Both the position numbers and the translations under genes were made by a program. Positions 13,570 through 29,164 of a stretch of DNA of 64,000 nucleotides are shown piece after piece. The DNA is taken from the NCBI GenBank assembly GCA_977020255.1, contig CDROCS010002180.1, forward strand, positions 434,001 to 498,000, written 5' to 3'. The DNA is from Obrimoposthia wandeli. Lineage: Eukaryota. Within the stretch, counting starts at the first letter, position 1. Every line of letters starts with the position of its first letter. The notes under the pieces were generated by a model. It was not told where the DNA came from. It saw nothing but the letters and a program-made list of their open reading frames with translations, and searched no databases.

Positions 13570-13900
13570 TGTAACATAGATCCTCAGACGGAGGGCCCCA
13601 ACGTGAGTTCTATAGAAGCAGGACTTGTAAATGTTTGTGGCCTACTTGTGTTATGCTTGCCTATCTCAATTTGTATCTGAAGTTTATTTATGGTTAGGTG
13701 TTGTGAAATGTGTGAAGAGCTGTGTATATGAATATTGCAGAATTCCCTTAGTGTGGTGTTGTGTGTAGAGTAGTTAACAACTACTTGCTTGTAAGGGTTC
13801 GGTTTGGTACAATACGGTTTAATGTAGGATATCTTTATTTCTAAACACACGACTTTACGTTTTGACCTGTTCTAAAAACAGCAATACTAATTCTAGTTAT
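13570..13900 (+). mobile_element. 5' part of a putative LTR interrupted by the Polinton (continues 29165-29182)
   Basis: Starts TGTAAC at 13570; beyond the Polinton the sequence resumes and ends CTAACA followed by AG-TGG (PBS-like). Confidence 0.5.
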
Positions 13901-14478
13901 AAGTGTAAAGTGTCGGTTCTAAAACAATAGCACACAAAGCCCTCCCCCTCCCCGAACAAGGAACGAGGAACAAAGCACATCTGGAATTCGCTTAGTCATG
14001 CAGATGTGCTTTGTTCCTCGTTCCTTGTTCGGGGGTGAGGGCTTTGTGTGCTATTGTCTTTGAACCGACACTTTACGTTTTCAATCCTGATTGGTCTTAT
14101 GTGTCATTTACAATTATGTAGGTTAATATTCTGTAACATTAAGTATATAGTTCAAAAATTTAAAAATTTAAAAAATTTTAATTCAAAATTAAAAAATTAA
14201 ATATGGAAATTAAAAAATTAAATATGGAAATTAAAAAATTAAATATGGAAATTAAAAAATTAAAATTTTAATTCAAAAATTAAATATGAAAATTAAAACA
14301 TTAAAATTTTAAAAATAACATTTTGAAATTAAACACAATTGACCGTCCCAAATTTTTATTTGCAACTATTTAATTTACTTAGTACGGCAACCTCATTCCA
14401 GGAGTTAGACTGCCCCGCATAACCGGACAGCTATCGCAGTTTTTATCTTAAGAAACGTTATTGTTTATAGTAGGAGTT
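13901..14478 (+). repeat. left TIR of Polinton, with terminal hairpin 13905-14076 and A-rich tandem array ~14150-14320
   Basis: Reverse complement of ~28562-29154 with scattered mismatches; lacks the terminal AGAG. Confidence 0.92.
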
Positions 14479-14533
14479 TATATTTATATAATGAAGAAAG
14501 CAAAGTAACATCGATAAATATATATTAGTACAA

Positions 14534-15187
14534 TTATAAGCGAACTTGTCCATCAGTAATTTTCCAGATTGGTTTATGAAGACCTGTACAGTTGATTTTG
14601 TATCCCTGTATTGAAATGACGATCATCCATTTGAGTCCAGTTTCCATATTGTCAACATTAAAGTCGTGATCTCGCTTGAAAAGATTAGGATCAGCTCGAA
14701 TTATTATATGATTCCCAACTATAATGTTGAGATGCATCGACGCGAAAGTTGTGTTAAGATCATCAATATCTGATGGATTTAATCTATGTATCTTGAAATC
14801 GTATTTTGACTTATTCAGAGCCACCGGAAACATGAATCCATATATGATTGGAGTCTTCAAAAAATTCATTTGCCAGTTATAAAACATAACCGGCTTGGTT
14901 TACTTCAAATCGTTAGACTCAAATATTACACCTGATGGTCTATTGTTGATGAACGGTTTCTTATGTTTGAGTGTAGAAACTATATCATCAATAAAGAGAT
15001 CCTCATTTGTTGCTTGCTTCTCAATCTTGATAGTCTTGGATAGTTTGTTGTTGTTGCTTGTCATAGTTTGCTTCTTTGGTTTTGATATAAAAACTACATC
15101 ATCATCATCGGTATCCACATCTGTGTCTGTAAGCCTTGTTGTTGGTGACTTCTCGAACTTAAGAGATTTAGTTTGTTTAGAGTTCAT
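14534..15187 (-). pseudogene. Polinton leftward gene (~217 aa): acidic/Lys-rich N-terminus plus globular C-terminal domain, one in-frame TAA
   Basis: ORFs 14900-15187 and 14534-14887 share a frame and are separated only by TAA at 14900-14902 (..ESNDLK*TKPVMFY..). Confidence 0.7.
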
Positions 15188-15189
15188 AT

Positions 15190-15313
15190 CAAAATAATGA
15201 ATTCTATACCAAAAGTGGTAGCTTATATATATATCATCATACTCGATTCTGATTGGATAATCTTTAGCTTAAAAATTTTATATATAGATTGGGTTATTTC
15301 CATTAATTCAATC
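15190..15313. promoter_or_regulatory. divergent promoter between leftward gene and TBP-like gene
   Basis: TATATATA runs at ~15224-15233 and ~15279-15286, each ~35-45 nt from an ATG; ATTGGATAAT at 15252-15261 and a second ATTGG at ~15288. Confidence 0.55.
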
Positions 15314-15806
15314 ATGAATCTTGCAAATATTAATTATAAAGGTAAAGTTAAAGGAGACATCAGTCACTTACCCTACAAAGCCGGGAAACCATGTCAGTAC
15401 GTGCACAGGTGTAAGGATTATACCCTTATAATCTTCCGTTCAGGTATGTTTTTATGTTAGTTAGTTAGTTAGTTAATTATTAGGAGCATGCATGATAATG
15501 GGTTGCAAGAAACCTATTACTACAACTATGCTCAAGTGTCCATTTAGAATAAAGATTGATCGTATTCAATCAGTAACGGTTACTGTCGATTTAGGTAAGA
15601 AGGTGAACCTATACAAGTTGTCTCAAAAGTGTGGAGCTGCATGCATGTTCGAACCTGAGTTGTTTCCTGCTTTGAGGTTTACAAAACACAATCTTCTGTG
15701 CGTCAACATATTTGCAAGCGGGAAAGTGGTCATACTCGGTCTCAAGGATTTGGATTATAACTTTGATGTGACTTTGATAATAACTGATATTTTACTTTTG
15801 ATATAA
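15314..15806 (+). CDS. TATA-box-binding protein (TBP)-like protein, 150 aa, join(15314-15443,15484-15806)
   Basis: Spliced product has both TBP repeats: TLIIFRSGACMIMGCK (cf. TALIFSSGKMVCTGAK) and FEPELFPAL...VNIFASGKVVILGLK (cf. YEPELFPGL...LIFVSGKVVLTGAK); the 40-bp GTATGT...TTAG intron restores the frame. Confidence 0.92.
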
Positions 15807-15848
15807 ACAATAAATTTTAGTTGAATTTTTATTCTTACATGATTTGAA

Positions 15849-16748
15849 ATGCTAGTTGATTATATACTTCATTATACAACTGTTGATGATGTTTTAGTTA
15901 GACGAAAAGTAGGTTATTCTAGAATGAAAGTTTTACACTGGAAATATAGACGTGAAAGTGAAAGATTAAGATCATTAATTATAAATTTTAAAGGGAAACA
16001 ATCTGTAAATGATTTAGCTAAAGCCGGATTTTATAAACATGATGATGATTCAACCGATAAAGTAAAATGTATATACTGCCAAGGTGCGTTATCCGAATGG
16101 GAATGGTATCTTAAACCAATGAAGCAACATATGAAATTTTTTCCTACATGTCCATTTCTTTTAAAGTTAAATGTTTCAAATGGACCAATAATTGAAACTA
16201 TGGACAAGAAAATCGATTTTGATACATCACCATTGATTGGAAAAGTACATGTATCAGATATTGATATAAAATTACCTGATATATGCTATTCAAAATGTTT
16301 AGGACCCTATAATGAGGCTAATGTTATTGAGAAAATCGAAACAGATTGTATAATTGAATATCCTTTGACTATTGAGAAATTCGATATGTTGATGGATACA
16401 AACCAAATCAGATATTTGAAAAGGTTTTTCACAAAAGATAGAATAAAATCTGTTTTAAAATATAAAATGATACGATATGGTGAATACAATTCACTATTTG
16501 AATTGCTTTGTGATTTATCTAATTTAGAAATGAAACCTGAAAAACAATATATAAATATACTTTCATACATTTTAAAGGAACCCGAATGTGTAGTATGTTT
16601 AAATAATCATATTGAAGTAGTATTTCTCCCTTGTGGACATGTAAATACATGTATATCATGTTCTAGAATGTTACATTCATGTCCAGTATGCAGATGTCTG
16701 ATCGAACGGAGAGTAAGAAATGTAAAATTTCATGGTATAAACAATTGA
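15849..16748 (+). CDS. iap: inhibitor of apoptosis (IAP): one BIR domain plus C-terminal RING, 299 aa, intact
   Basis: BIR: LAKAGFY..DKVKCIYCQGALSEW..PMKQHMKFFPTCPF; RING: CVVCLNNHIEVVFLPCGHVNTCISCSRMLHSCPVCR. Confidence 0.95.
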   Translation: MLVDYILHYTTVDDVLVRRKVGYSRMKVLHWKYRRESERLRSLIINFKGKQSVNDLAKAGFYKHDDDSTDKVKCIYCQGALSEWEWYLKPMKQHMKFFPTCPFLLKLNVSNGPIIETMDKKIDFDTSPLIGKVHVSDIDIKLPDICYSKCLGPYNEANVIEKIETDCIIEYPLTIEKFDMLMDTNQIRYLKRFFTKDRIKSVLKYKMIRYGEYNSLFELLCDLSNLEMKPEKQYINILSYILKEPECVVCLNNHIEVVFLPCGHVNTCISCSRMLHSCPVCRCLIERRVRNVKFHGINN

Positions 16749-16766
16749 AATTTATGATTTATATAA

Positions 16767-17033
16767 ATGGATGAAAACAATAAATTAGTTGATGATGCAG
16801 TCGAGGAAATTATAAACGGAACAATAAATGGAGTTCAATACTTTTCTAGTTTTGATGGACTTTCTCGTAATAATATAAAGGAAATTGTTTGCACCCATGT
16901 CTATAGAGATATCAAACGGATAAAGGATTTTGAAATATTCGTTCAAATTAATCGTTCAAACATGATGTATATAACCTTTTCTGCGTCAATTTTTAATTCT
17001 CTGTTGTTGTATATATTAATAAAACGTATATAA
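16767..17033 (+). CDS. hypothetical Polinton protein, 88 aa
   Basis: ATG-initiated ORF filling the gap between IAP and ATPase; TATAAACAAT 31 nt upstream. Confidence 0.6.
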   Translation: MDENNKLVDDAVEEIINGTINGVQYFSSFDGLSRNNIKEIVCTHVYRDIKRIKDFEIFVQINRSNMMYITFSASIFNSLLLYILIKRI

Positions 17034-17063
17034 ACAATCGTTTCTTTTGATTTATTATTATTG

Positions 17064-17711
17064 ATGATGATAAAACTTAAAAATAACGCGGTTTACCAAA
17101 TAGTAGGACCTAGTGGGAGTGGGAAAACACATTTTGTAACTAAATTACTTCAAAATAAAAACATGTTTGATCAAAAGTTTGGTAGAATATACTGGCATTA
17201 CGGAGGTGTAGGTGAATCTGGTCTAACACGAACAGAATTAGGTAAATTGAAGGGTATTCATTTTATTAATGGTTTTGATAATAAATGGTCTGAGAGGTTA
17301 AATTCAGGAGATGTCATTGTAATTGATGACTTGTATGATGAAGCGAATAAAGAGTCGGGTTTTAATAACCTGTTTACCAAAATAGCTAGACATATAAATG
17401 TAACAGTGATTTTTATCACTCAAAATCTCTTTCATCAAGGCGGTCAACACCGTACTCGGAATTTAAATGTACATTATCTAGTATTATTTAAAAATCCGCG
17501 AGATCAAACGGTTATCGACTTTGTTGCCCGTCAAGCTTTCCCTTGCAATAAGCAATATTTGATTGACGCATTTCAAGATGCTACAACTAACCCTCATGGA
17601 TACTTGTTTTTAGATTTTACACAGGAATGTCCAGACGATTTACGCGTGAGAACCGATATTTTCAATAATGATTTTGTATATAAACAAAAGAAAAGCCTAT
17701 CTACTTGTTAA
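17064..17711 (+). CDS. FtsK/A32-like genome packaging ATPase
   Basis: Walker A GPSGSGKT, Walker B VIVIDD, ARH..VTVIFITQNLF, Polinton-typical HGYLFLDF; intact. Confidence 0.95.
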   Translation: MMIKLKNNAVYQIVGPSGSGKTHFVTKLLQNKNMFDQKFGRIYWHYGGVGESGLTRTELGKLKGIHFINGFDNKWSERLNSGDVIVIDDLYDEANKESGFNNLFTKIARHINVTVIFITQNLFHQGGQHRTRNLNVHYLVLFKNPRDQTVIDFVARQAFPCNKQYLIDAFQDATTNPHGYLFLDFTQECPDDLRVRTDIFNNDFVYKQKKSLSTC

Positions 17712-17713
17712 TC

Positions 17714-18025
17714 ATGTCATTTATGAAAGAAACAATGCCTAGTGGAGTTGGACCTAAATGGAGACCGGGTGATAAATTACACGCTAATGATAACAAATTG
17801 ATGCTAAAGAAGAATGCTCATATTAAAAATCTTATTAAATCAGTGCTTCATCAGCGTAAAGTAGTCGATGAATCATTAAAGAAATCGGTAAAGACAGTAA
17901 AGAGAAAACCTGTAAAAAAGAAACCATTAAAGAAGAAACCTGTTAAGAAAGCAGTTGGAAAGTCGGTTAAGAAGTCGGATAAAAAGCGTGTAAATAAACT
18001 AGTTGGTAAATGGATTAAACTATAA
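17714..18025 (+). CDS. Lys-rich basic protein, putative DNA-condensing core protein
   Basis: KRKPVKKKPLKKKPVKKAVGKSVKKSDKK tract; lies in the virion module; function is inference. Confidence 0.7.
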   Translation: MSFMKETMPSGVGPKWRPGDKLHANDNKLMLKKNAHIKNLIKSVLHQRKVVDESLKKSVKTVKRKPVKKKPLKKKPVKKAVGKSVKKSDKKRVNKLVGKWIKL

Positions 18026-18056
18026 ACAATATTGCAAATAGTTTAATTCATTAAAT

Positions 18057-18385
18057 ATGTTATCAAAATCTATACTTCCCTACTTTCAGGCTTTAATCAA
18101 GGCTCCAAGCATATATAGACCACGTATACTCAAGTCATTTCCACCCTTTGTTATTGATAAGTTGGTTGAAGTTTTGTTTAATATTACAAAAGGTACTGTA
18201 AAAATCGGTAATCATAAACATAACCTTAGAAAACATCAAAAAGCTTTACTTGATTTAGTGAATACTAAAAGTAAAACTGGTAAACGTAGAGTAATTCTAA
18301 AACAAAAAGGTGGTTTTATCGGTGCATTAATACCTATAATTGCTATTTAGTATCTCCTTTGATTGCAAAATTGATAAACTCATAA
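18057..18385 (+). CDS. conserved Polinton small virion protein with QKGG|F motif and hydrophobic C-terminal helix (apparent 1-nt frameshift near 18346)
   Basis: ..KRRVILKQKGGFIGALIPIIA; shifted frame continues LVSPLIAKLINS* to 18385. Confidence 0.75.
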
Positions 18386-18436
18386 ACAAAATGGGTAATA
18401 ACATACCAAACATCGATTTTAAATTCACTTGTTGCA

Positions 18437-19458
18437 ATGGAAACGATATGGTACGATCCCGAAAACCCAGCTGGGTACAGCAGCATTACAAAAGTCAATC
18501 GAGTCAAAAGAAAACTCAGAAATGGCTGAGCAATCAGCTAGCATACAGTCTAAATAAGCCAATGAAGCGGAAGTTCCCGACTCGAGCATACAGAACAAGC
18601 GGTCCTAACGATTTATGGCAGGCCGATTTGATGGAAATGATACCATATGCAAGTATCAATGACGGTAACAAGTATATTTTAACATGTATTGACGTGTTTA
18701 CAAGGTATGCGCGTGCATTACCTGTAAAATCTAAATCAGGTAAGGATATAGAGGCTGCTCTAAGTATAATGATTGATAAAACTGTCCCCATACATGTGCA
18801 AACCGATAAGGGTAAAGAGTTTTACAACAAAAATGTAGGTAGTTTATTAAAAAAATTAAATATTGAACATTACTCTGTAGTTTCACAATTCAAAGCTGCC
18901 CTAGTTGAAAGGTTTAATAGAACATTGAGAGATCGATTAAAAATACATTTTATTGCACAAGGCAATAAAAGATGGGTTGACGTTTTACCAAAAGTAATGA
19001 CTTCATACAATCACAGTAAGCATAGAGGTTTAGACGGATTGAGACCTGTCGATATTAATGATAAAAATGCAATGGAAATTTGGTTGAGTCGTAATCAAGT
19101 CGATAAAGTTAATAAACCCAAACATAAGACTGGTGATTATGTTCGGATATCAAAGTTTAGTGGTAGCCCCTTTATTAAAAACTTTGATCCGAATTGGAGT
19201 GATGAAGTGTTTAGGATAGAGAAAATAGACAAACGTGCAAATCCTGTAATGTACTCTATAGTTGATGATGACTGTAATGTAATAACAGGGAAATTTTATG
19301 AACCTGAATTACAAGTAATTGATAAACCTACACTTTTCCGTATCCAATAAGTCGTAAAATCTAAAGGCGGTGGTAAGAATAAACAATATCTCGTAAAGTG
19401 GCATGGATATTCTGAATCAACATGGATCAAAGCAAGCCAGATAGAGACTTCTATATGA
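18437..19458 (+). pseudogene. retroviral-like (c-int) DDE integrase with C-terminal chromodomain; frameshift ~18495 and premature TAA 19348-19350
   Basis: METIWYDPENPAGYSS N-terminus in another frame; DDE triad WQADL / QTDKG / VERFNRTL; after the stop VVKSKGGGKNKQYLVKWHGYSESTWI (chromodomain). Confidence 0.93.
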
Positions 19459-20585
19459 TTTTACCGAGTAATAGTTGTCCGAAAACTCAACCTAATAATA
19501 TGGCTTCATTATTCACTGTAGATTGGGAGAATCCAATTACGTTAAATGGTAAATGGGAGGCGGCATTAACTGAATTTACGTATACAAACACTCCTGTTAT
19601 TTTAAATAAGGGCAGTGAAATTAATTATTCTATTAAATTCTCCAATCAACAGACTGATCAAATATCTTTATCAGTAATTCATACTCAAGTAGAAGTAGAA
19701 AAGAAAGAACCGCAATTGCATGGTGATAAATCAGAACCAAAAGTTATTAAAAAGACAATTAATAAAATATCAAAACTCACCGTCACGTCTAAAGATAAGA
19801 TTGCAAAGCTTTCTATTTCCTTAATCACAGTTGGTGTAGGTATTGATAAAAAGGATAATGTTGTACTAATAAAATCCGTCAACAACAAAAAATTATATAT
19901 CAAGATGGATGCTGACGCTAAAAATGAATTAGGATTCATTTTCAATACATTAACTTCAGAAAGTTTCGAGTCTGATGATAAAGGAGTTTTACAAGGATCA
20001 ACATCTATCAGACCTGATTGCAGTGCACATAATTTACAATATATGCATTATAAAACCGGTTCATACAACAAGAAAACTGTATTTACAGAAGATTTAAATA
20101 ATAATAATGTAAATGCATTAGTAGCATACATTAAATCTAAATGCGACGTTATATTTAAAAGATTTTATATGGATGATAATGATAAGCTAATAAAATTTGT
20201 ATTAAAGAATGGAATTGAGCATATTGGATTTGATCAACGTTTAATGCATGTATTAGGGTTAGATAAATCACGATTTACGGGCAACGGGTCAGGTAAACCT
20301 CGATTAAATTACGAGTTTGATCACATGTATTCTAGTCTGTGTGAACCTGTAAACGTTGGAGGTCAAATGATACCCTTATTAAAATCTATATGGTTAGATA
20401 AAAATAAAGCACCAGGAGACACGGTTAATATCGCAATATACAGACCCATGTATATCCCTTTAGCATCAAATGTAATCTCAAACATTGAAATTAATATTAG
20501 AAACGATGCAGGTGTTCCAATAAGTTTTTCCAACAATGCAAAAGTATCCCTTACCATACATGTCCGTTGTATAGATCAGGTATAA
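19422..20585 (+). CDS. minor capsid protein (penton), intact, 387 aa
   Basis: Polinton-typical N-terminus DFYMILPSNS..NNMASLFTVDWENPITLNGKWEAALTEFTY and C-terminal MYIPL..IEINIRNDAG..VSLTIH. Confidence 0.88.
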   Translation: MDQSKPDRDFYMILPSNSCPKTQPNNMASLFTVDWENPITLNGKWEAALTEFTYTNTPVILNKGSEINYSIKFSNQQTDQISLSVIHTQVEVEKKEPQLHGDKSEPKVIKKTINKISKLTVTSKDKIAKLSISLITVGVGIDKKDNVVLIKSVNNKKLYIKMDADAKNELGFIFNTLTSESFESDDKGVLQGSTSIRPDCSAHNLQYMHYKTGSYNKKTVFTEDLNNNNVNALVAYIKSKCDVIFKRFYMDDNDKLIKFVLKNGIEHIGFDQRLMHVLGLDKSRFTGNGSGKPRLNYEFDHMYSSLCEPVNVGGQMIPLLKSIWLDKNKAPGDTVNIAIYRPMYIPLASNVISNIEINIRNDAGVPISFSNNAKVSLTIHVRCIDQV

Positions 20586-20621
20586 ACAATCTGTATTCAA
20601 AAATAGTTGTGCATTACAGTT

Positions 20622-21028
20622 ATGAATATAATTGAGACATTTAGTGGGCCTCAACAAGGTGGTGAATTACCATATTTTGTAGGTAAACAGTACGGTTCGG
20701 GATGGTTGAAAACATTGGGGCGGTTAGCATTCCCTATACTGAAAAGATTAGGCCGTGTTGGAGTTAAAACAGTTCAAGATGTAATAATGAACAACAAATC
20801 TGTGTTACCAATGCTTAAACAACATGCACTAGGGAAGTTGCCGGAGCCATACCGGAGGCTAAGGAAGCTTTTGGTACAGTTGTTAAAATTATTAAAAATC
20901 GACGTAAACGTAAAGCAAGTGAAGCAGCACAAATGGTTGAACCCGAAACTAAAAAGCAAGAGGGTAGTGGTAGAAAGAAAGCATCTAATATAAACAAACG
21001 AAGAAAACAAGGTACAATATTTGCTTAA
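20622..21028 (+). CDS. Polinton core/cement protein with QQGG and QYGSG motifs and amphipathic helix (pVI-like by inference); frameshift ~20832
   Basis: GPQQGGELPYFVGKQYGSGWLKTLGRLAFPILKRLG; shifted frame gives ..KQEGSGRKK..KRRKQGTIFA* ending just before the hexon ATG. Confidence 0.78.
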
Positions 21029-21030
21029 TA

Positions 21031-22253
21031 ATGGCTTGTGGTAAATCTGAATTATGTATTTTTGATCGAGCTTTGCCTCAGGTAGTTGTAAATAATGGTA
21101 GCTTTGAAGATATATATCCAACAAACAATATTACCGGAACAAGAACATCAGAGATTCTGTTTAAAATCCAAGGTTCAGATATTGAGAACTTAGATTTGAA
21201 TGATACCTTGTTGTTTGTGAAAATTAAAGTAACGAAAACTGATGGTACAGATATAGCTGTTACAGATTATGTGGTCCCATCAAATTTCTTGATGCATTCC
21301 CTATTTAAAAGCATAGATATATCAATGAATAATACTGTAGTAGAAACCCATCCTCAATATGCACAAAAAGCTATGATTGAAACCATACTAAACTATAGCA
21401 CAGACACTAAAGACACTTGTTTGTCGAGTATAGGTTATGATGATACTGAAGATAATCGTAAAGGTTGGGCTGATCGCTCAAAAGAAATTGACTTGTGTGG
21501 GACTCTTCGATCTGATATTTTTGAGCAACCAAAGTATCTCTTACCTGGTGTGTCTATCATGGTAAGACTTGTACCTAATAAATCTATGTTTAGTCTGAAC
21601 TACGGAACGACTCCATCGCGAATCATATTTATTGAAGCTAAACTTAAAGTCAGAAGAGTCAGAGTTGAGAATGATGTTTTAATGGGACATAATATTGGTC
21701 TTGAATCTAGGAATGCTGTATATCCCTATACTCGCACAAAGCTAATGTATCATACCTTAGCCATCGGTTCTACGAGTTTTTACAAGGATCAAGTGTTTGA
21801 TGATGAACAATTGCCTAAATTTGTGTTGATTACGTTGCAAGCAGGTGAAAAACTTATCGGTAATGGTGCTACAGACTCTTCAACATTCGATCATTCTAAT
21901 GTTAACACTATCAGTCTTGCTAGAAACAGTGATTTTAACGAATCTTACAGTACAAACTTTGAAACAGGTGAAACCACCTTTGCATATGTCCAATCTATCA
22001 TTAGAAATATGGGTAATTTGGATAAGAATATAAACAATGGCGTATCACTGGATGAATTCAAAACCAAATATCCATTTTCACGTTTGTTTTAGCCCCTGAC
22101 TTTGATATCACGCAAAACCAATTAGCAAAACAGGGTAATTTACGCCTTGACATCAAGTTTCACAAGTCATTAACAGTCCCAACAAACGTACTGATTTAAG
22201 GGATTTTTGATTCTGAGTTTGAAATAACTAAAGGCCGACGTGTGATTGTATGA
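21031..22253 (+). pseudogene. double jelly-roll major capsid protein (hexon); frameshift ~22078 and in-frame TAA near 22198
   Basis: MACGKSELCIF..LDLNDTLLFVKIKV, SDIFEQPKYLLPGV; shifted frame completes FTFVLAPDF..QGNLRLDIKF..VLI*GIFDSEFEITKGRRVIV*. Confidence 0.92.
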
Positions 22254-22610
22254 AGTGAGTTTTTTAATTTATGTTTTAAGATTTTATTAACAACAAGTAC
22301 TGTTCAGGTGAATGAAATAACTAGTTTGCTGCTCGGACCGCGATTTAAGGGTGTATACCCGTTGGAAATAATCCTAACATTAACGCCTGGTGGATATATT
22401 GTCAATACACATACCTCAAATCTTACTGGAGACCACTGGATTGCGTTATTCGTGAGACGGAATTCTGTACATGTGTATGACCCTCTTGGAGTATACTATC
22501 CGGGAAAACTTATCAAGCATGTAGAGTCTCAAGGAAAACATGTATATTACAACAAAATTCGTTCTCAAAACCCACTGACTACTAATTGCGGTCCACTATG
22601 TATCTTATAA
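22250..22610 (+). CDS. adenain-like cysteine protease, join(22250-22254,22298-22610)
   Basis: Catalytic H (GDHW), D (YDPLG), Q/C (SQ..TTNCG); a 43-bp GTGAGT...TTAAC..AAG intron gives MNTVQVNEI; ATG overlaps the hexon stop (ATGA); TAA at 22610 may be premature. Confidence 0.88.
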
Positions 22611-23100
22611 TTGTATGATCAAACTATATAAATGTCAAACATTTTAATTTGTGTTGATTGGTAATAAAATTTGTATTCAAAATCGTATTTGTTTTATAAA
22701 TAGCTTCAACTACCCAGTCGAAATTTTAAAAAATTTGAGTTTTGATAAATTAAAAAATAGATTTAAAATCTACTAATTAAGAGAAAATTAATGGTGTGAA
22801 TTATTTTTAAAAATTCATAGTCTAACGGTATGAATATCGGTTATGAAAAATATCATAATTGATTGACCGTAATTAACCTTTATGATAACGTGTGTAGCAA
22901 CTAGGGAATAAAGGGTCTTTATGACACATTCCTAGTTTGTAATAATGAAAGTACACACGTGTGTGTGTGCATCTAGGGCAGAAACTACACTGACTGTGAA
23001 CCATATATAAACAATCAGTGTAGATGCATTCATCAATTTTATCACAATTATCAAAAGTAAGTATTTTGATTTTATTTTAATTTTATTATTTTTTTTTTAG

Positions 23101-23472
23101 ATGTCGAAAATTATTTTCGCGTACAATGCTAAGAAAAGATGGACGATGAAGCCTGTAGTCGATATGGATGATGATGATGTCGACTTGGATGCGACACCAC
23201 AACAAAAAGGTAATTTTTTGATTAGTATTTTTAATTTAATTTTCATTTAGCAATGCCCAGTGTCACAACACCACCAATATCGATTGCGCCATGGATACCA
23301 ACAATATATGATGATGATGCTACTAGGAAAAGAAGGAAACAAAAGAAGCCGAAAACCTCTGATGATGATGATGATGCTACTAGGAAAAGAAGGAAACAAA
23401 AGAAGCCGACAATTTCTGATGATGATGATGATAATAAGAAAAATCCAAAAGTTTTTTTATCTTCTAAGAAAT
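23101..23472 (+). CDS. spliced Polinton gene, join(23101-23209,23251->23472), with acidic/basic 19-aa repeats; runs into the gap; upstream intron 23057-23100
   Basis: GTAAGT..TTAG and GTAATT..TTAG introns keep frame; DDDATRKRRKQKKP(K/T) repeated with 57-bp period. Confidence 0.7.
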
Positions 23473-24010
23473 NNNNNNNNNNNNNNNNNNNNNNNNNNNN
23501 NNNNNNNNNNNNNNNNNNNNNNNNNNNNNNNNNNNNNNNNNNNNNNNNNNNNNNNNNNNNNNNNNNNNNNNNNNNNNNNNNNNNNNNNNNNNNNNNNNNN
23601 NNNNNNNNNNNNNNNNNNNNNNNNNNNNNNNNNNNNNNNNNNNNNNNNNNNNNNNNNNNNNNNNNNNNNNNNNNNNNNNNNNNNNNNNNNNNNNNNNNNN
23701 NNNNNNNNNNNNNNNNNNNNNNNNNNNNNNNNNNNNNNNNNNNNNNNNNNNNNNNNNNNNNNNNNNNNNNNNNNNNNNNNNNNNNNNNNNNNNNNNNNNN
23801 NNNNNNNNNNNNNNNNNNNNNNNNNNNNNNNNNNNNNNNNNNNNNNNNNNNNNNNNNNNNNNNNNNNNNNNNNNNNNNNNNNNNNNNNNNNNNNNNNNNN
23901 NNNNNNNNNNNNNNNNNNNNNNNNNNNNNNNNNNNNNNNNNNNNNNNNNNNNNNNNNNNNNNNNNNNNNNNNNNNNNNNNNNNNNNNNNNNNNNNNNNNN
24001 NNNNNNNNNN
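23473..24010. other. assembly gap (538 N)
   Basis: Run of N. Confidence 1.
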
Positions 24011-24070
24011 ATTCTAATTATTTAAATAAACGTTTTGGGGATATAAATGATATAAAATCAAATTCTCCCG

Positions 24071-24132
24071 ACTGCCATAGCTGCCCGGTAACGCGGGGCA
24101 GTCTAACTCCTGGAATGGGGTCGCATAGTAAG
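24071..24132 (+). promoter_or_regulatory. internal copy of a ~62-bp GC-rich TIR cassette, 29 nt downstream of a TATA-like box
   Basis: Aligns with 28600-28662 and the reverse complement of ~14378-14440; TATAAATG at 24042. Confidence 0.75.
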
Positions 24133-24330
24133 TTAACTAAATCAAGAAGTTACCTCTTACTTTTTAAACCAGGGACACCTGTTGGGTCACCTGTTAATTC
24201 GTTAGAAAATTTCAATGTAAATGAGATATACTCGGGTTTTGAAAATATCCCGTTTAAAAAATATTTTAATCAACTAAAGAAAGTTAAAAATCAAAATATT
24301 GATTTAAGTAAACTGAAAACAGAAGGTAAG

Positions 24331-24621
24331 ATGGGTAAACGATTTCGTCAGAAGCTGCGTAGATTGAGAAAACAACCAGCAGGTATAACAATATTTGCAA
24401 ATTTATTAGGGTCTTGCAAACCCATTAATATTAGTCCAGGTCTGAAAATTACAGATCTGGCAAATAAATTATATGAAGTCTTCGGGACTGACCAAATTTA
24501 TTTTTATCGTAATGGCATGCCCTTTGAAGGGGAAGCTACTATTGGCAATGTTTTACATGAGGGGGCTATTATCCATGTATACCCTAAACTTCGTGGAGGA
24601 AGTAACTTATGTACATTGTAA
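24331..24621 (+). CDS. ubiquitin-like domain ending LRGG (24589-24600), in frame with downstream pPolB
   Basis: ITIFANLLGSCKPINISPGLKITDLANKLYEVFGTDQIYFYRNGMPFEGEATIGNVLHEGAIIHVYPKLRGG aligns by eye with ubiquitin; true start uncertain because the frame is open back to the gap. Confidence 0.8.
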   Translation: MGKRFRQKLRRLRKQPAGITIFANLLGSCKPINISPGLKITDLANKLYEVFGTDQIYFYRNGMPFEGEATIGNVLHEGAIIHVYPKLRGGSNLCTL

Positions 24622-27600
24622 AAGTATTGCATAAACGTTAATCATGGAATAGAATGTCATAGTGTAATGCTTAAATATTATAAATTTAAAAGCGGTTTTA
24701 TTTGTCCACATTGTGATGTGTTATATTGTATTGTCTATCAAACATTTTATAATGATCATAAGGATCATCTGACGTATTTTAAATCTAAAAAGTCGGCATA
24801 CAAACGTAAAGTAATGAGTGTACCAACAATAGACAACAATAAAATAACAAAAACTAATAATTTTGATGAAGAGTTTGATGTGGTAGACTCGTGGGAACCG
24901 GATAGTGTTGTAGAAATTGATACTAATCCTGAAGTTGTAGAAATTATTGAGCCTTTAACCCCTAATGACATCTTAAATAATAATAATATTGATGAACTTA
25001 TAGATCAGGACGAGTTTATAACAGAAAATGATTTTTTCGACTCGCTCCTAGCTATTACGGATGATGACTTTGATAATATTGTTACAATTAATTCAGATAA
25101 TACATTAACTTTTAACAATCAAATAGGAGGTGCAATTCAATCAAACCTTGTTTTTGATGTTAGTGGGTTAAACATGCTTAAACTATACATTAACGATACT
25201 ATGCTAACTGAACTTACTATCAGTATAGATGTGTTTGGTCCCTGTAAAATACAGTTTGGTGTTGAAACCGAATTTGTCAATAATGAGGGTCAGCATAAAA
25301 CATGGCATGTAAGCTGTAAAGCAAATATTTTTGAACAAGATTTTATCACTACAAGAACAGTTGAGCTCAACAATAAAATTGAAATTTATAAGGATATGAG
25401 TTCGGGATGGTCAGTATTTAAAATTCTGTTGGTATCCTTTAAATTTACTGCACTTTAAAACGTAGCAGGATCATCATTTATAAAAACCCCGGTTGCGCTT
25501 GCTAAAACACTATCTATAGTGAACGTAAATAATACTGATGATCAGTGTTTTAAATACGCTGTTCTCAGTATCTTACACTATAAAGATTTCAATCGAACAG
25601 ACAAAGAGTTGAAAACTATAATGAATATTTAAATGAACTAATATGCGAGCTTGGTTCTATGAGGATAGACTGCATCAAGGTGTTTGAAAAACTCAATAAT
25701 TTTGCGATAACAGTATTTTCCTATAAACCTACAAAGGTAAAGCCTCATAGTAGTCATCTAGTGTTTAAAAACCTAGATGTTAACGTTATTTATAGAACGA
25801 GTCTTAGGCAGTGCAAAAAAGTAGTAAACTTGTTGCTGTTGAAACAGAGCGGTAATTATCACTATACAGGGAATACAAAACTGAATAGACTTTTATATAC
25901 TCAAAAATATAATGTGCGTCTCTTTTCGGTTTTCGAACCACGATTTCATATGACAAACACAGGGCACATTGTAATATTAATACAGATTTAACAACCTTGT
26001 TTACAATGCCTAAAGATATCAAGTGTCAGTTTTCCGACTATTCTAAATCTATTGCGCCACCATTTGTTGTATATGCCGACTTTGAGTCAATACTCGAGCC
26101 GCATAATACTTTCAAACACATTCATAAACCAATATCTATAGGGATGATTTTGAAAAACAACACTAATAATTCAATACAATATTTTAGTTATTACGGTCTG
26201 CAGTGTGCTAAAAACTTTGTAGATAAATTAACTGAGTTGATAAATGGTGAAGTGGCAGATTTTTGGGTAAATAGTATTAATGTTCCTATGGTTTTTATTA
26301 ATAATGACATGTTGAACTTTAGAGATTGCACTAATTGCTATCTTTGTAGAAAATTAAACGATCGTATGGTTAGAGATCATGATCATATCACGGGTAAATA
26401 CTTGGGTGCGGCATGCAACAAATGCAATTTAAGTCGCAAGTTTGCAAAGAGACCAGTTTTACCTGTGGTGTTTCATAACCTTATGGGTTATGATATACAT
26501 CTTATTCTAAAATATGCTGACTTGAAAGGTAAATACTTTTCAATTATCCCTAAATCAAGTGAAACGTTCATGTCCCTCCGTATAGAGATGAAGAGGGGGA
26601 CATTGAAATTCATTGATTCATACCTTTTTACAACGTCAAGTCTTGAATCCTTAGTTTCATACTTGTCAAGTTGTCCTTATACTACACAATACCTAAACCC
26701 TAATATTGCAACAAGTAAGGCGGTATTTCCATATGAATATATTAGTGGTGTTGATAGGCTTGTGGAGAGGCAGTTACCTGCTAAATCTGAGTTTCCTTCT
26801 CGAGTCACTGATCAACAATATAATGAAGCCCTAATGATGTGGCCGTATTAGGGTGTAATACTATTAAAGACTACATGCTTGAGTATATGAAACTTGAGGT
26901 GTACCTGTTATGTGATGTTTTTGAGGCCTTCAGACAGAAAGTAAGGGATGATGATAATCTAGAGGCGCTCAATTTTTTTAGTATCCCGGTCTCAGTTGGG
27001 CTAGCGCATTAAAAACGTTAGAGTATGACGTGGATTTATTGCATGATCCCGAAATGTATAACATGTTTGAGGCAGGGATACGGGGAGAGATGACTTTCAT
27101 CAAAAAACATTACGTTAAAACAACAGATGAAACATTCCTCCTATACATTGACATAAACAACCTATATGGCTGGGCCATGAGTCAACCGTTACCACATACA
27201 GATTTTACATGGGTATATGACGGTTTTGAAGCGATAATTGAGCTTATAACTGAGAGGGATATTCACGGTAATATGCAGGACTTAAGTCTTAAAGAACATG
27301 GATACTTGATGGAAATTGATTTACACATACCCATCAGTATTCATGATAAACGTGATGACTTACCGATTGCGCCTAATAGAGAAATCCCTCCCGGCTCAAA
27401 AGCTTCAAAGCTGTTGATGACCCATGAGGATAAAAATAATTACATCATACACTCACAACTACTACAATTTTACTTGTTTCTGGGCACAGAAATTAAACAA
27501 GTGCATAGAGCAATAAAGTTTCATCAAGCTCCTATATTTAAAACATATATTTATATCAATAGCCGGAAACGGCATGTAGATAAAGATGTTCTCTTAAAAC

Positions 27601-28094
27601 AAATGATTAAAGATCAAAGGTTAGATACTAGTAATTACCCGCTCACACATGAGTTATTTAACGATACTCATCGAAATGTTATTGGAAAGTTTAAAGATGA
27701 AAGCAAAAGGACAGTGCTTTATGATGAATGGGTATTTCTGAAACCTAAATGCTACTCATTGAAAACCAGTATGAGGGCTAAGGGTATCTCCCTTAAACAA
27801 ACCGAAATCAGACATGAGCATTACATCAAGTGTTATGTTGATGATGAAATTATAACTGCCGGTCAGACACGTATTTTATCTCGTAATCATCAATTATTTA
27901 CAATGTATAATTATAAAATTGCGTTAAGGTGTTATGACGATAAAAGGGTTTGGATTGAGAAAATCAAATCCGTCGCATATGGACACTATAGTCTAAGACA
28001 GGTGTATAAAATCTGGGGTAACCTCTTGAAAGTATTGACTTATATCCTTCTTATTTTTATTGTAATAAGCAGAATATTGTATGTATCTTTTTAA
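24622..28094 (+). pseudogene. polB: protein-primed family B DNA polymerase (terminal-protein region, OTU-like segment, exonuclease, EndoVII-like insert, polymerase); fragmented, motifs B and C deleted
   Basis: SSGWS, NTDDQCFKYAV, VVYADFESIL (ExoI), RDHDHITGKYLGAACNKCN, FHNLMGYD (ExoII), YIDINNLYGWAM (motif A), IGKFKDE, DDKR..AYGHY; several stops and frameshifts. Confidence 0.95.
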
Positions 28095-28211
28095 ATGCGA
28101 TAGTATGTATATATTTTTAATGCTATAGTATGTATATATTTTTATTGATGTTTATTATTATTAATACATTGTATGTATCATAACCATGTCTTGACTTCCT
28201 ACTAGCTACTC

Positions 28212-28270
28212 ATTGGATAATTTCGTTGGATAATTTCATTGGATAATTTTAACAAATTCTCTATAAATAT
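28212..28270 (+). promoter_or_regulatory. three 13-bp repeats containing TTGGATAATTT followed by TATAAATA
   Basis: TTGGATAATTT at 28213, 28226 and 28239; TATAAATA at 28262, 42 nt before ATG 28304. Confidence 0.65.
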
Positions 28271-28303
28271 ATACACACTTCAACCAATTTCTTATTATTT
28301 CAA

Positions 28304-28543
28304 ATGACTATTTTTAAATAAAAATTACAAGCTCTCCATGATAACCTGAGCCCTACCTTGATGGCACAGTATACTGAAAAATACTTAAACTTATTTGTTG
28401 CACCAGAACATTTTGTCTCAAGGATTGAAGAACTTTATATGTATCATCTGTTTAACGGAGACTTTAAACCTAAAGTTGCAACAATCATTAAAATAGAAGA
28501 AGAAGAAAGCATGGATTGTGTTAATGAATATAATTATGTATAA
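28304..28543 (+). pseudogene. small Polinton ORF (~79 codons) with TAA at codon 6
   Basis: ATG 28304 is in frame with ORF 28358-28543; preceded by a TATA box. Confidence 0.45.
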
Positions 28544-28561
28544 ACATAGACTTTTTTACTA

Positions 28562-29158
28562 GACTCCTAATATAAACAAAAACGTTTTTAAAGATAAAAA
28601 CTGCGATAGCTTTCCGGTTATGCAGGGCAGTCTAACTCCTGGAATGAGGTCGCAGTACTAAGTAAATTAAATAGTTGCAAATAAAAAGTTGGGACAGTCA
28701 ATTGGGTTTAATTTCAAATGTTTAATTTTTTAATTTAAAATTTTTAAATTGTAATTCTTAAATTGTGAATTCTAAATTAAAATTTTTTAATTTAATTTTT
28801 AATTTCTAAATTTTTTAATCTAGTTTTTTAATTTCTAAATGTTTTATAATTTAAATTTAATTTTTAATTTCTAAATATTTTTTTTTTATTTTCTAAATTT
28901 TTAATTTTTGAACTATATACTTAATGCTTACATAATATTAACCTACATAATTGTAAATGACACATAAGACCAATCAGGATTGAAAACGTAAAGTGTCGGT
29001 TCAAAAACAATAGCACACAAAGCCCTCCCCCCGAACAAGGAACGAGGAACAAAGCACATCTGAATGACTAAGCGAATTCCAGATGTGCTTTGTTCCTTGT
29101 TCCTTGTTCGGGGGGCTTAGTATGCTATTGTTTTAGAACCGACACTTTACACTTCTCT
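28562..29158 (-). repeat. right TIR of Polinton with terminal hairpin 28988-29150
   Basis: Reverse complement of the left TIR; ends CTCT followed by TSD AGTTAT. Confidence 0.92.
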
Positions 29159-29164
29159 AGTTAT

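Follow-up and report, generated by a model that had tools for sequence, protein, structure and literature searches.

Polinton polymerases and a putative ubiquitin-like cleavage signal

The DNA polymerases (pPolB) of Polinton/Maverick elements (Alpha adintovirus) have been described as a chain of terminal protein (TP), vOTU, exonuclease and palm domains, and self-cleavage of this chain has been hypothesized (Krupovic, Kuhn, Fischer and Koonin, 2024; PMC11161782). OTU-PolB classes are defined in a second study (PMC8502044). This analysis concerns a Polinton found in 64,000 nucleotides of DNA from Obrimoposthia wandeli (assembly GCA_977020255.1, contig CDROCS010002180.1, positions 434,001 to 498,000 of the forward strand; this whole stretch is called the window and is numbered from its first letter). 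The element is similar to described Polintons in that it is bounded by terminal inverted repeats (TIRs) and carries integrase, ATPase, capsid, and adenain-like genes. Its pPolB is of the pfam03175 type, with the conserved Cys and His in an N-terminal OTU-like region. The difference is that in this genome a leader and one or two ubiquitin-like (Ubl) units ending in Gly-Gly precede the polymerase. A Ubl before pPolB is not mentioned in the accessible text or supplement text of PMC11161782 and PMC8502044, and the accessible parts of PMC5803895, bioRxiv 10.64898/2026.10.13.758929, PMC6431247, and PMC2836005 contain nothing on the fusion. It appears to be undescribed in the literature searched; subscription papers, Repbase reports, figure images, and bioRxiv supplements could hold a description.

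Among working systems, the nearest parallel is the ubiquitin inserted into the polyprotein of cytopathic bovine viral diarrhoea virus (BVDV), where it is cut by host hydrolases so that NS3 gains its authentic N-terminus (PMC8310069, PMC13517609). By this analogy, the Ubl cassette likely works in the manner of a pestivirus processing signal, and BVDV polyproteins were among the top viral fold matches of the Ubl model. However, BVDV inserts are recent, nearly identical to host ubiquitin, and cut by host hydrolases, and they occur in an RNA virus. Here, two families have the Ubl as a fixed feature; it shares ~22% identity with ubiquitin, its Ile44 patch is gone, and the chain that bears it also contains a protease of putative deubiquitinase fold. 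A site of the K/R-hydrophobic-x-G-G type with the protease on the same chain is also found in turnip yellow mosaic virus PRO/DUB, equine arteritis virus, and coronavirus PLpro (PMC5695851). In those viruses the site is described as a short linear motif, whereas the putative site here ends a whole predicted beta-grasp domain. The nematode Maverick cargo proteins WASP and KRMA share divergent N-terminal Ubl domains, but these are located on cargo proteases and kinases instead of the polymerase, and no di-glycine cleavage is described in the accessible text (bioRxiv 10.1101/2022.07.12.499685). Lastly, ISG15 and FAT10 resemble one of the families discussed below (family 3) in having tandem units with Gly-Gly only on the second, and several structures tie for the best fold match, with ISG15 chains among them. 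This likeness is in architecture only, without a sequence link, and conjugation machinery was not found among the 21 open reading frames (ORFs) of the element that were scanned.

The Ubl-polymerase reading frame

In the window, a Ubl domain of 72 residues with a C-terminal KLRGG is encoded on the forward strand at 24385..24600. The visible part of the pPolB leader lies in frame before it (24013..24384, forward strand), with the basic stretch GKRFRQKLRRLRK directly adjoining the Ubl. The Ubl is followed by a Cys/His-rich, Zn-finger-like unit (24601..24780, forward strand), which corresponds to the N-terminus of Ubl-less relatives and is broken here by a TAA stop codon (24619-24621, forward strand). 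A first-pass annotation of the window had recorded the KLRGG ending at 24600, the residues SNLCTL after it, the TAA, and the continuation of the same frame into a Cys/His-rich and acidic region, all of which is borne out by the sequence. It had also proposed that the polymerase is made as an in-frame Ubl fusion, which other genomic copies, the check that it had suggested, confirmed.

A Ubl query that stops short of the TAA was searched against the 1.35-Gb genome and gave 150 scored matches among 2,722 candidates. The stop codon was absent from all 29 of the other loci picked by the Ubl alone. In a wider tally of 74 loci it was absent from 64 of 64 junctions read, and 57 of these have KLRGG. 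The wider set was partly chosen for long frames or Zn-finger likeness, and 29 is the unbiased count. Its ten loci without a junction reading consist of seven from another family and three with changed flanks, which were scored as open in the 29-locus set. Of 20 longer stretches that were fetched, 15 had been picked for long frames, and these 15 run from the Gly-Gly through the vOTU Cys and His motifs; five of the 20 contain one ORF of 1,540-1,555 codons. Four contig sets from one sample cover the stretch, and more than 99% of their summed depth disagrees with the window's stop codon, although this may be the assembly's own sample and is not independent. The TAA is damage specific to the window copy, and the fusion frame is real.

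The Ubl is internal, lying behind a leader of 90-210 residues. Translation from the ATG at 24331 was considered and rejected, as all 149 other Ubl matches start at query residue 2 and the Met is absent at this position in three copies read. In 21 of 29 copies no stop interrupts the frame over 228 or more codons before the Gly-Gly, and candidate starts place the Gly-Gly at about residue 275-295, or at residue 162. Conservation of the leader in the sister family extends over its final ~70 residues (30% identity to the family-3 leader, pairwise E 3e-7), and therefore at least this part is likely translated. Further upstream, the leader of L179, L180, and other copies of the window's family (family 1) contains a Ser/His-coding trinucleotide tract which ranges from a few to more than 200 codons between copies. 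A 55-nt segment of the inner TIR (14387-14440; 28600-28654) also recurs in the leader at 24071-24125, where it ends at a candidate start Met. This segment is present in most family-1 loci and may be a promoter or a protein-binding site.

The ubiquitin-like domain

The evidence for a ubiquitin-like domain is structural. At the level of sequence alone, likeness to ubiquitin is not above chance. No ubiquitin or Ubl family was matched in Pfam, and ubiquitin was not among the matches in a sequence search of the PDB. Weak matches to botulinum NTNH chains in that search covered fewer than 30 residues and were put down to chance. Alignment to host ubiquitins with HHalign gave a probability of 5% (E 0.008), and the score of the host-ubiquitin profile was reached by 49 of 2,000 shuffles, or by 391 of 2,000 once the tail had been removed. 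A global alignment to host ubiquitin contains 17 identities, four of which are in LRGG. AlphaFold2 was supplied with 46 natural sequences of the element, with ubiquitin left out of the alignment, and returned a Ubl model with a predicted local distance difference test (pLDDT) score of 85.9 and the order strand-strand-helix-strand-helix-strand. The top Foldseek matches were SUMO2, ISG15, and ubiquitin (E 3.5e-6 to 1e-5; template-modelling score, TM, 0.78-0.81), and VIA-align gave a Z of 12.1 with a root-mean-square deviation of 1.5-2.0. As the top matches are tied, no single Ubl subfamily is favoured; the viral fold matches include baculovirus ubiquitin as well as the BVDV polyproteins. In several VIA-align rows, residue 80 of the model pairs with G76 of ubiquitin or G157 of ISG15, placing the Gly-Gly in register with G75-G76. 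The domain is predicted to be a beta-grasp of the ubiquitin type. The divergent Ubl of the first-pass annotation thus stands on its predicted structure, for which an AlphaFold check had been suggested, but not on its sequence.

Ubiquitin uses its Ile44 hydrophobic patch, Arg42, and Arg74 in its contacts with E1 and deubiquitinases. With the register taken from the HHalign alignment and the C-terminus, the Ile44 column was found to contain N, K, S or Y, the Arg42 column is Tyr in 46 of 46 sequences, and the Arg74 column is Phe, Ile or Leu in family 3. Conversely, Lys occupies P5 in 45 of the 46 Ubl sequences, and a hydrophobic P4 is retained. The domain is under purifying selection (between-family dN ~0.55, with dS from 1.35 to saturated).

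Three polymerase families in one genome

Two further polymerase families were found in the same genome. Family 2 has a polymerase of ~1,240 codons which is 45% identical to that of family 1 and contains no Ubl (the best E for the Ubl profile in 58 loci was 0.16). Its proteins start with M-x-I-C (M-S-I-C). From 28 loci 26 copies were read, and in 24 of them the frame has no earlier Met. Similarly, the outside relatives P0016 and P0006 start with M-S-N-C and M-N-T-C, respectively, while family 1 reads GG|S-N-L-C. The N-termini of family 2 (E 1.3e-8), P0016, and P0006 are homologues of the Zn-finger-like unit. Because the start Met of these Ubl-less relatives precedes the same unit, the Gly-Gly of family 1 stands where the start Met stands elsewhere. 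The unit itself has no Pfam family; one to three copies of it stand in tandem at the N-terminus of related pPolBs, and it is also present in shorter proteins (carriers include P0123, P0128-P0131, P0020, P0023, and P0026).

Family 3 (150 scored matches) is more decayed than family 1 and contains two tandem Ubl units that are 34-40% identical to the Ubl of the window. The junction with the polymerase is GG|S in 28 of 29 cases read from 30 loci, comprising 25 VFGG, two VIGG, and one IFGG. The upstream unit ends in G-V in 26 cases and in Gly-Gly in none of the 29, and it retains the invariant residues L15, L16, K20, K36, Y38, and Y47. In a FastTree tree of 38 TP-vOTU regions, families 1 and 3 were joined with a support of 0.99, apart from the Ubl-less polymerases. 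One family-3 row in this tree has 142 residues, and a third was dropped because it gave no match. The branch parting the outgroup and families 1 and 3 from most relatives has a support of 0.88. The simplest reading would be a single gain of the Ubl in the ancestor of families 1 and 3.

For the element's polymerase, 639 pPolB-like relatives were found, and its identity to the closest outside pPolBs is 38-48%. The Ubl was sought beyond this genome in several ways. Its profile matched none of 129 outside proteins (best E 0.86) and none of 7,995 longer proteins, and a word-based search of full-length candidates gave 0 of 291. A phmmer search of 1.84 billion representatives returned nine matches, five of them to the Zn-finger unit and four to apparently spurious repeat proteins. 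No Ubl-pPolB was confirmed in scans of metagenome and viral contigs. Given the limited sensitivity of these searches, the absence of relatives is weak evidence, and the Ubl-pPolB architecture is known so far from one genome, in two families.

Probable cleavage after the di-glycine

A single frame encodes, in order, the leader, Ubl, Gly-Gly, Zn-finger, acidic linker, QIGG, likely TP, vOTU, exonuclease, and polymerase. It is proposed that the Ubl would act as a processing tag that is cut after its Gly-Gly, and this cut would regenerate the N-terminus which Ubl-less relatives obtain from their start Met. The most likely enzyme would be the element's own vOTU protease. The Q-x-G-G site would be a separate cut of the adenain type, trimming the TP later. 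Taken as a whole, this processing cassette is considered fairly probable. Cleavage after the Ubl Gly-Gly is by itself likely, since only the polymerase-proximal unit keeps the Gly-Gly and the Gly-Gly marks the native N-terminus; the conserved GG|S junction and its position at the start of Ubl-less relatives favour it. Supposing that cleavage occurs, the vOTU is tentatively preferred as the enzyme, adenain is rather unlikely, and a host deubiquitinase is slightly less likely again. The products would differ from those first envisaged. Instead of a free Ubl, the piece cut away would be a leader-Ubl of 162-295 residues, and the polymerase product would not be TP-Pol, as it would begin with the Zn-finger and the acidic linker and QIGG also precede the TP.

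The Ubl site, of the K-hydrophobic type, resembles the self-cleavage sites KLNGA, RLLGS, and RLIGG of viral OTU proteases (PMC5695851). The Cys (C601) and His (H706) of the vOTU are invariant in 60 aligned pPolBs and are both also found in family 3. The other GG/GS motifs of the element carry Gln at P4 (QKGG, QQGG, and QYGSG in core-like ORFs; QIGG before the TP), which suggests a second class of site that would be used by adenain. QIGG was found in 24 of 26 family-1 copies read; in family 3, 19 copies were read and 11 of them have QIGG or GIGG. Furthermore, the loss of Ile44, Arg42, and, in family 3, Arg74 argues against recognition by host deubiquitinases and E1, given how host enzymes read ubiquitin.

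Several points weigh against this processing scheme. No OTU chain was among the PDB matches of a 60-sequence profile, and AlphaFold2 run on a single sequence of 601 residues gave a pLDDT of 29.5 and no reliable vOTU or TP fold. The vOTU and TP assignments rest on position and on published architecture (PMC11161782, PMC8502044). The cut proposed in PMC11161782 lies between TP and vOTU; no Gly-Gly is present there in the natural copy examined, so that the vOTU would have to recognize sites of two different types. A published listing of adenain motifs includes L(LR)GG, which fits family 1 (bioRxiv 10.1101/341131). The outside relatives used for the N-terminal comparison come from gene calling, and the real start of these proteins may be located further upstream. 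It is also the case that integral Ubl domains can retain a Gly-Gly uncut. Two other results carry little weight in either direction. A predicted vOTU-Ubl complex scored 0.01 in a run without alignments, which is no evidence either way, and 14 of 26 outside relatives have a GG/GS motif ahead of the TP, a count for which there was no background control.

A possible but less favoured explanation is that the cut at the Ubl end is made by the adenain-like protease of the element or, in the way known from pestiviruses, by deubiquitinases of the host, and that the vOTU has a different task. The listed adenain motif just mentioned, the adenain-like ORF of the element (E 0.037), and the release of NS3 from BVDV ubiquitin inserts by host hydrolases (PMC8310069) are all consistent with this, as are retrotransposons of the same genome in which a near-canonical ubiquitin with Gly-Gly lies in frame before Gag. 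However, the V-F-G-G of family 3 (25 of 29) falls outside both listed adenain motifs and lacks the Arg. An Arg before Gly-Gly is generally read by host enzymes. Host enzymes are also disfavoured by the substitutions at Ile44 (to N, K, S or Y) and at Arg42 (to Tyr), and adenain by the Gln at P4 of the element's other sites, which are putatively assigned to it. An integral Ubl that stays uncut and provides for binding or stability (whether as a degron, as a decoy for the proteasome or deubiquitinases, or as a vOTU regulator) is less probable still. The upstream unit of family 3 has no Gly-Gly and keeps the same invariant residues, and therefore a surface is of importance independently of cutting. 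The Ubl domains on Maverick cargo proteins have also been suggested to regulate protein abundance (bioRxiv 10.1101/2022.07.12.499685). Against a purely integral module, Gly-Gly is kept only by the unit adjoining the polymerase (28/29 versus 0/29) and is located at the native start of Ubl-less relatives.

It was also suggested in the first-pass annotation that the released Ubl could be conjugated to targets. Such a virus-encoded modifier, consisting of the leader-Ubl (a di-Ubl with the layout of ISG15 and FAT10 in family 3), is quite unlikely. Cleavage would expose a C-terminal Gly-Gly in register with G76, the BIR-RING protein of the element could serve as a ligase, and the tandem layout of family 3 would suit this role. 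Yet the Ile44 and Arg42 positions and, in family 3, Arg74 are not retained, no E1- or E2-like gene is present among the 21 ORFs scanned, and the product would bear a leader of 90-210 residues. The remaining idea, that a small gene of its own encodes the Ubl with a tail of six residues and that pPolB starts independently, has next to no probability. It is in keeping with the TAA of the window copy and with the short C-terminal tails that are usual in Ubl precursors, but no stop was found in any other junction read and the window copy has several other breaks. A stand-alone Ubl gene is refuted by the open junction in other copies.

The window copy of the polymerase and its element

Downstream of the Zn-finger-like unit, the polymerase gene continues on the forward strand with a basic and then acidic linker (24781..25131) that closes in the second di-glycine motif, QIGG (25120-25131). 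The likely TP domain (25132..25455) was assigned by its position before the vOTU, following the architecture in PMC11161782. In PRD1-like TP domains, which have a four-stranded sheet with two helices, the linking Ser or Tyr stands beside Gly or Pro. An SSGW motif is present at the place expected for this residue, making the Ser in MSSGW (25399-25404) a candidate. The vOTU-like domain (25459..25890) follows, and then the exonuclease and polymerase part (25913..28000), which is supported by tblastn of one natural copy and by the PF03175 match of the window's pPolB fragment (E 1.6e-5). The vOTU Cys in DDQCFKYAV (25546) and His in NYHY (25860) are where the first reading had placed them. Absent from that reading were an in-frame stop at 25456, before the Cys, and a frameshift between the two residues that leaves them in different frames in this copy. 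Breaks were mapped by tblastn of one natural copy at 85-98% identity, and in the exonuclease and polymerase part the frame is stopped at 26849, shifts near 25925, 26860, and 26980, and lacks ~125 codons at 27572. Three stops (24619, 25456, and 26849), together with the several frameshifts and these missing codons, show that the polymerase gene of the window copy is dead.

The element itself spans 13901-29158 and is a decayed Polinton/Maverick of ~15.3 kb, as judged from its TIR bounds, the AGTTAT on both flanks, the ORFs listed below, and the pfam03175-type polymerase. The left TIR (13901..14480) and right TIR (28560..29158) form inverted pairs with each other, and no strand is assigned to them; their arms are complementary at 74-98%. 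AGTTAT at 13895-13900 is repeated at 29159-29164, with one copy on each flank, and is likely a 6-bp target-site duplication. Each TIR opens at its outer end with a near-perfect internal palindrome of ~170 nt (13905-14076; 28988-29150). Folded as single-stranded DNA, the palindrome has an energy of -86 kcal/mol and a hairpin z-score of -24, and each end of the element could form a long hairpin.

A gene block on the forward strand (15149..22610) encodes TBP-like and BIR-RING (IAP) proteins, an A32-like ATPase, core-protein-like ORFs, an rve integrase, minor and major capsid proteins, and an adenain-like protease. Among the 21 ORFs scanned, Pfam matches were found for TBP (8e-13), BIR (1.9e-13), Pox_A32 (1.9e-7, a firm match), rve (2.3e-13), and Adeno_PX (0.0018). 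Capsid_N (0.0043) and Peptidase_C5 (0.037) matched weakly, below curated cut-offs, the latter in the adenain-like ORF (22254-22610, forward strand). The minor capsid gene was assigned by position and is likely. The TBP-like gene (15149-15806), which is in two frames in the window copy and a single ORF in family 2, adjoins the BIR-RING gene and is unusual cargo.

Ubiquitin in other elements of the genome

Near-canonical ubiquitin was found in frame between a leader and Gag in at least two multi-copy retrotransposon-like families with a DUF1759 Gag, which presumably belong to BEL/Pao (L077-L080, L120, L124, L127-L133, and L136-L138). These ubiquitins are ~53-77% identical to host ubiquitin in the aligned copies and mostly end in LRGG or LKGG. 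The retrotransposons are unrelated to the Polinton but share with its pPolB the order of leader, ubiquitin unit, Gly-Gly, and core protein. No description of this ubiquitin-Gag layout was found in the literature searched. The genome also contains tandem arrays of ubiquitin-like units of 82-89 codons (L122, L125, and other contigs), each with its own short frame and ~45-50% identical to ubiquitin. Lastly, L119 holds two adjoining ubiquitin-ribosomal-protein genes, which we take to be of the S27a type; one has a canonical ubiquitin and the other a 71%-identical unit ending in LLGG.

Significance

The polinton vOTU was proposed in 2024 as an active self-processing protease, and no tested substrate or site is named in the accessible text of that proposal (PMC11161782). 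The Ubl-pPolB family offers a folded, Gly-Gly-ended candidate substrate on the same chain as the vOTU, together with built-in controls in the form of a duplicate without Gly-Gly, a VFGG variant, and Ubl-less sister families. The question is therefore testable with small isolated domains. More tentatively, the captured Ubl may be a private substrate of the vOTU, forming a host-independent Ubl-deubiquitinase switch that would time the release of the primer-polymerase and leave a free leader-Ubl decoy, with an ISG15-like tandem in one family. If this is true, it would put a first natural substrate for the polinton vOTU in hand. Cleavage at the Ubl would extend the pestivirus strategy of using ubiquitin as a cleavage signal to a DNA virus-like element, and retrotransposons of this genome, though unrelated, have a like layout, which hints that the solution recurs among the mobile elements of this host.

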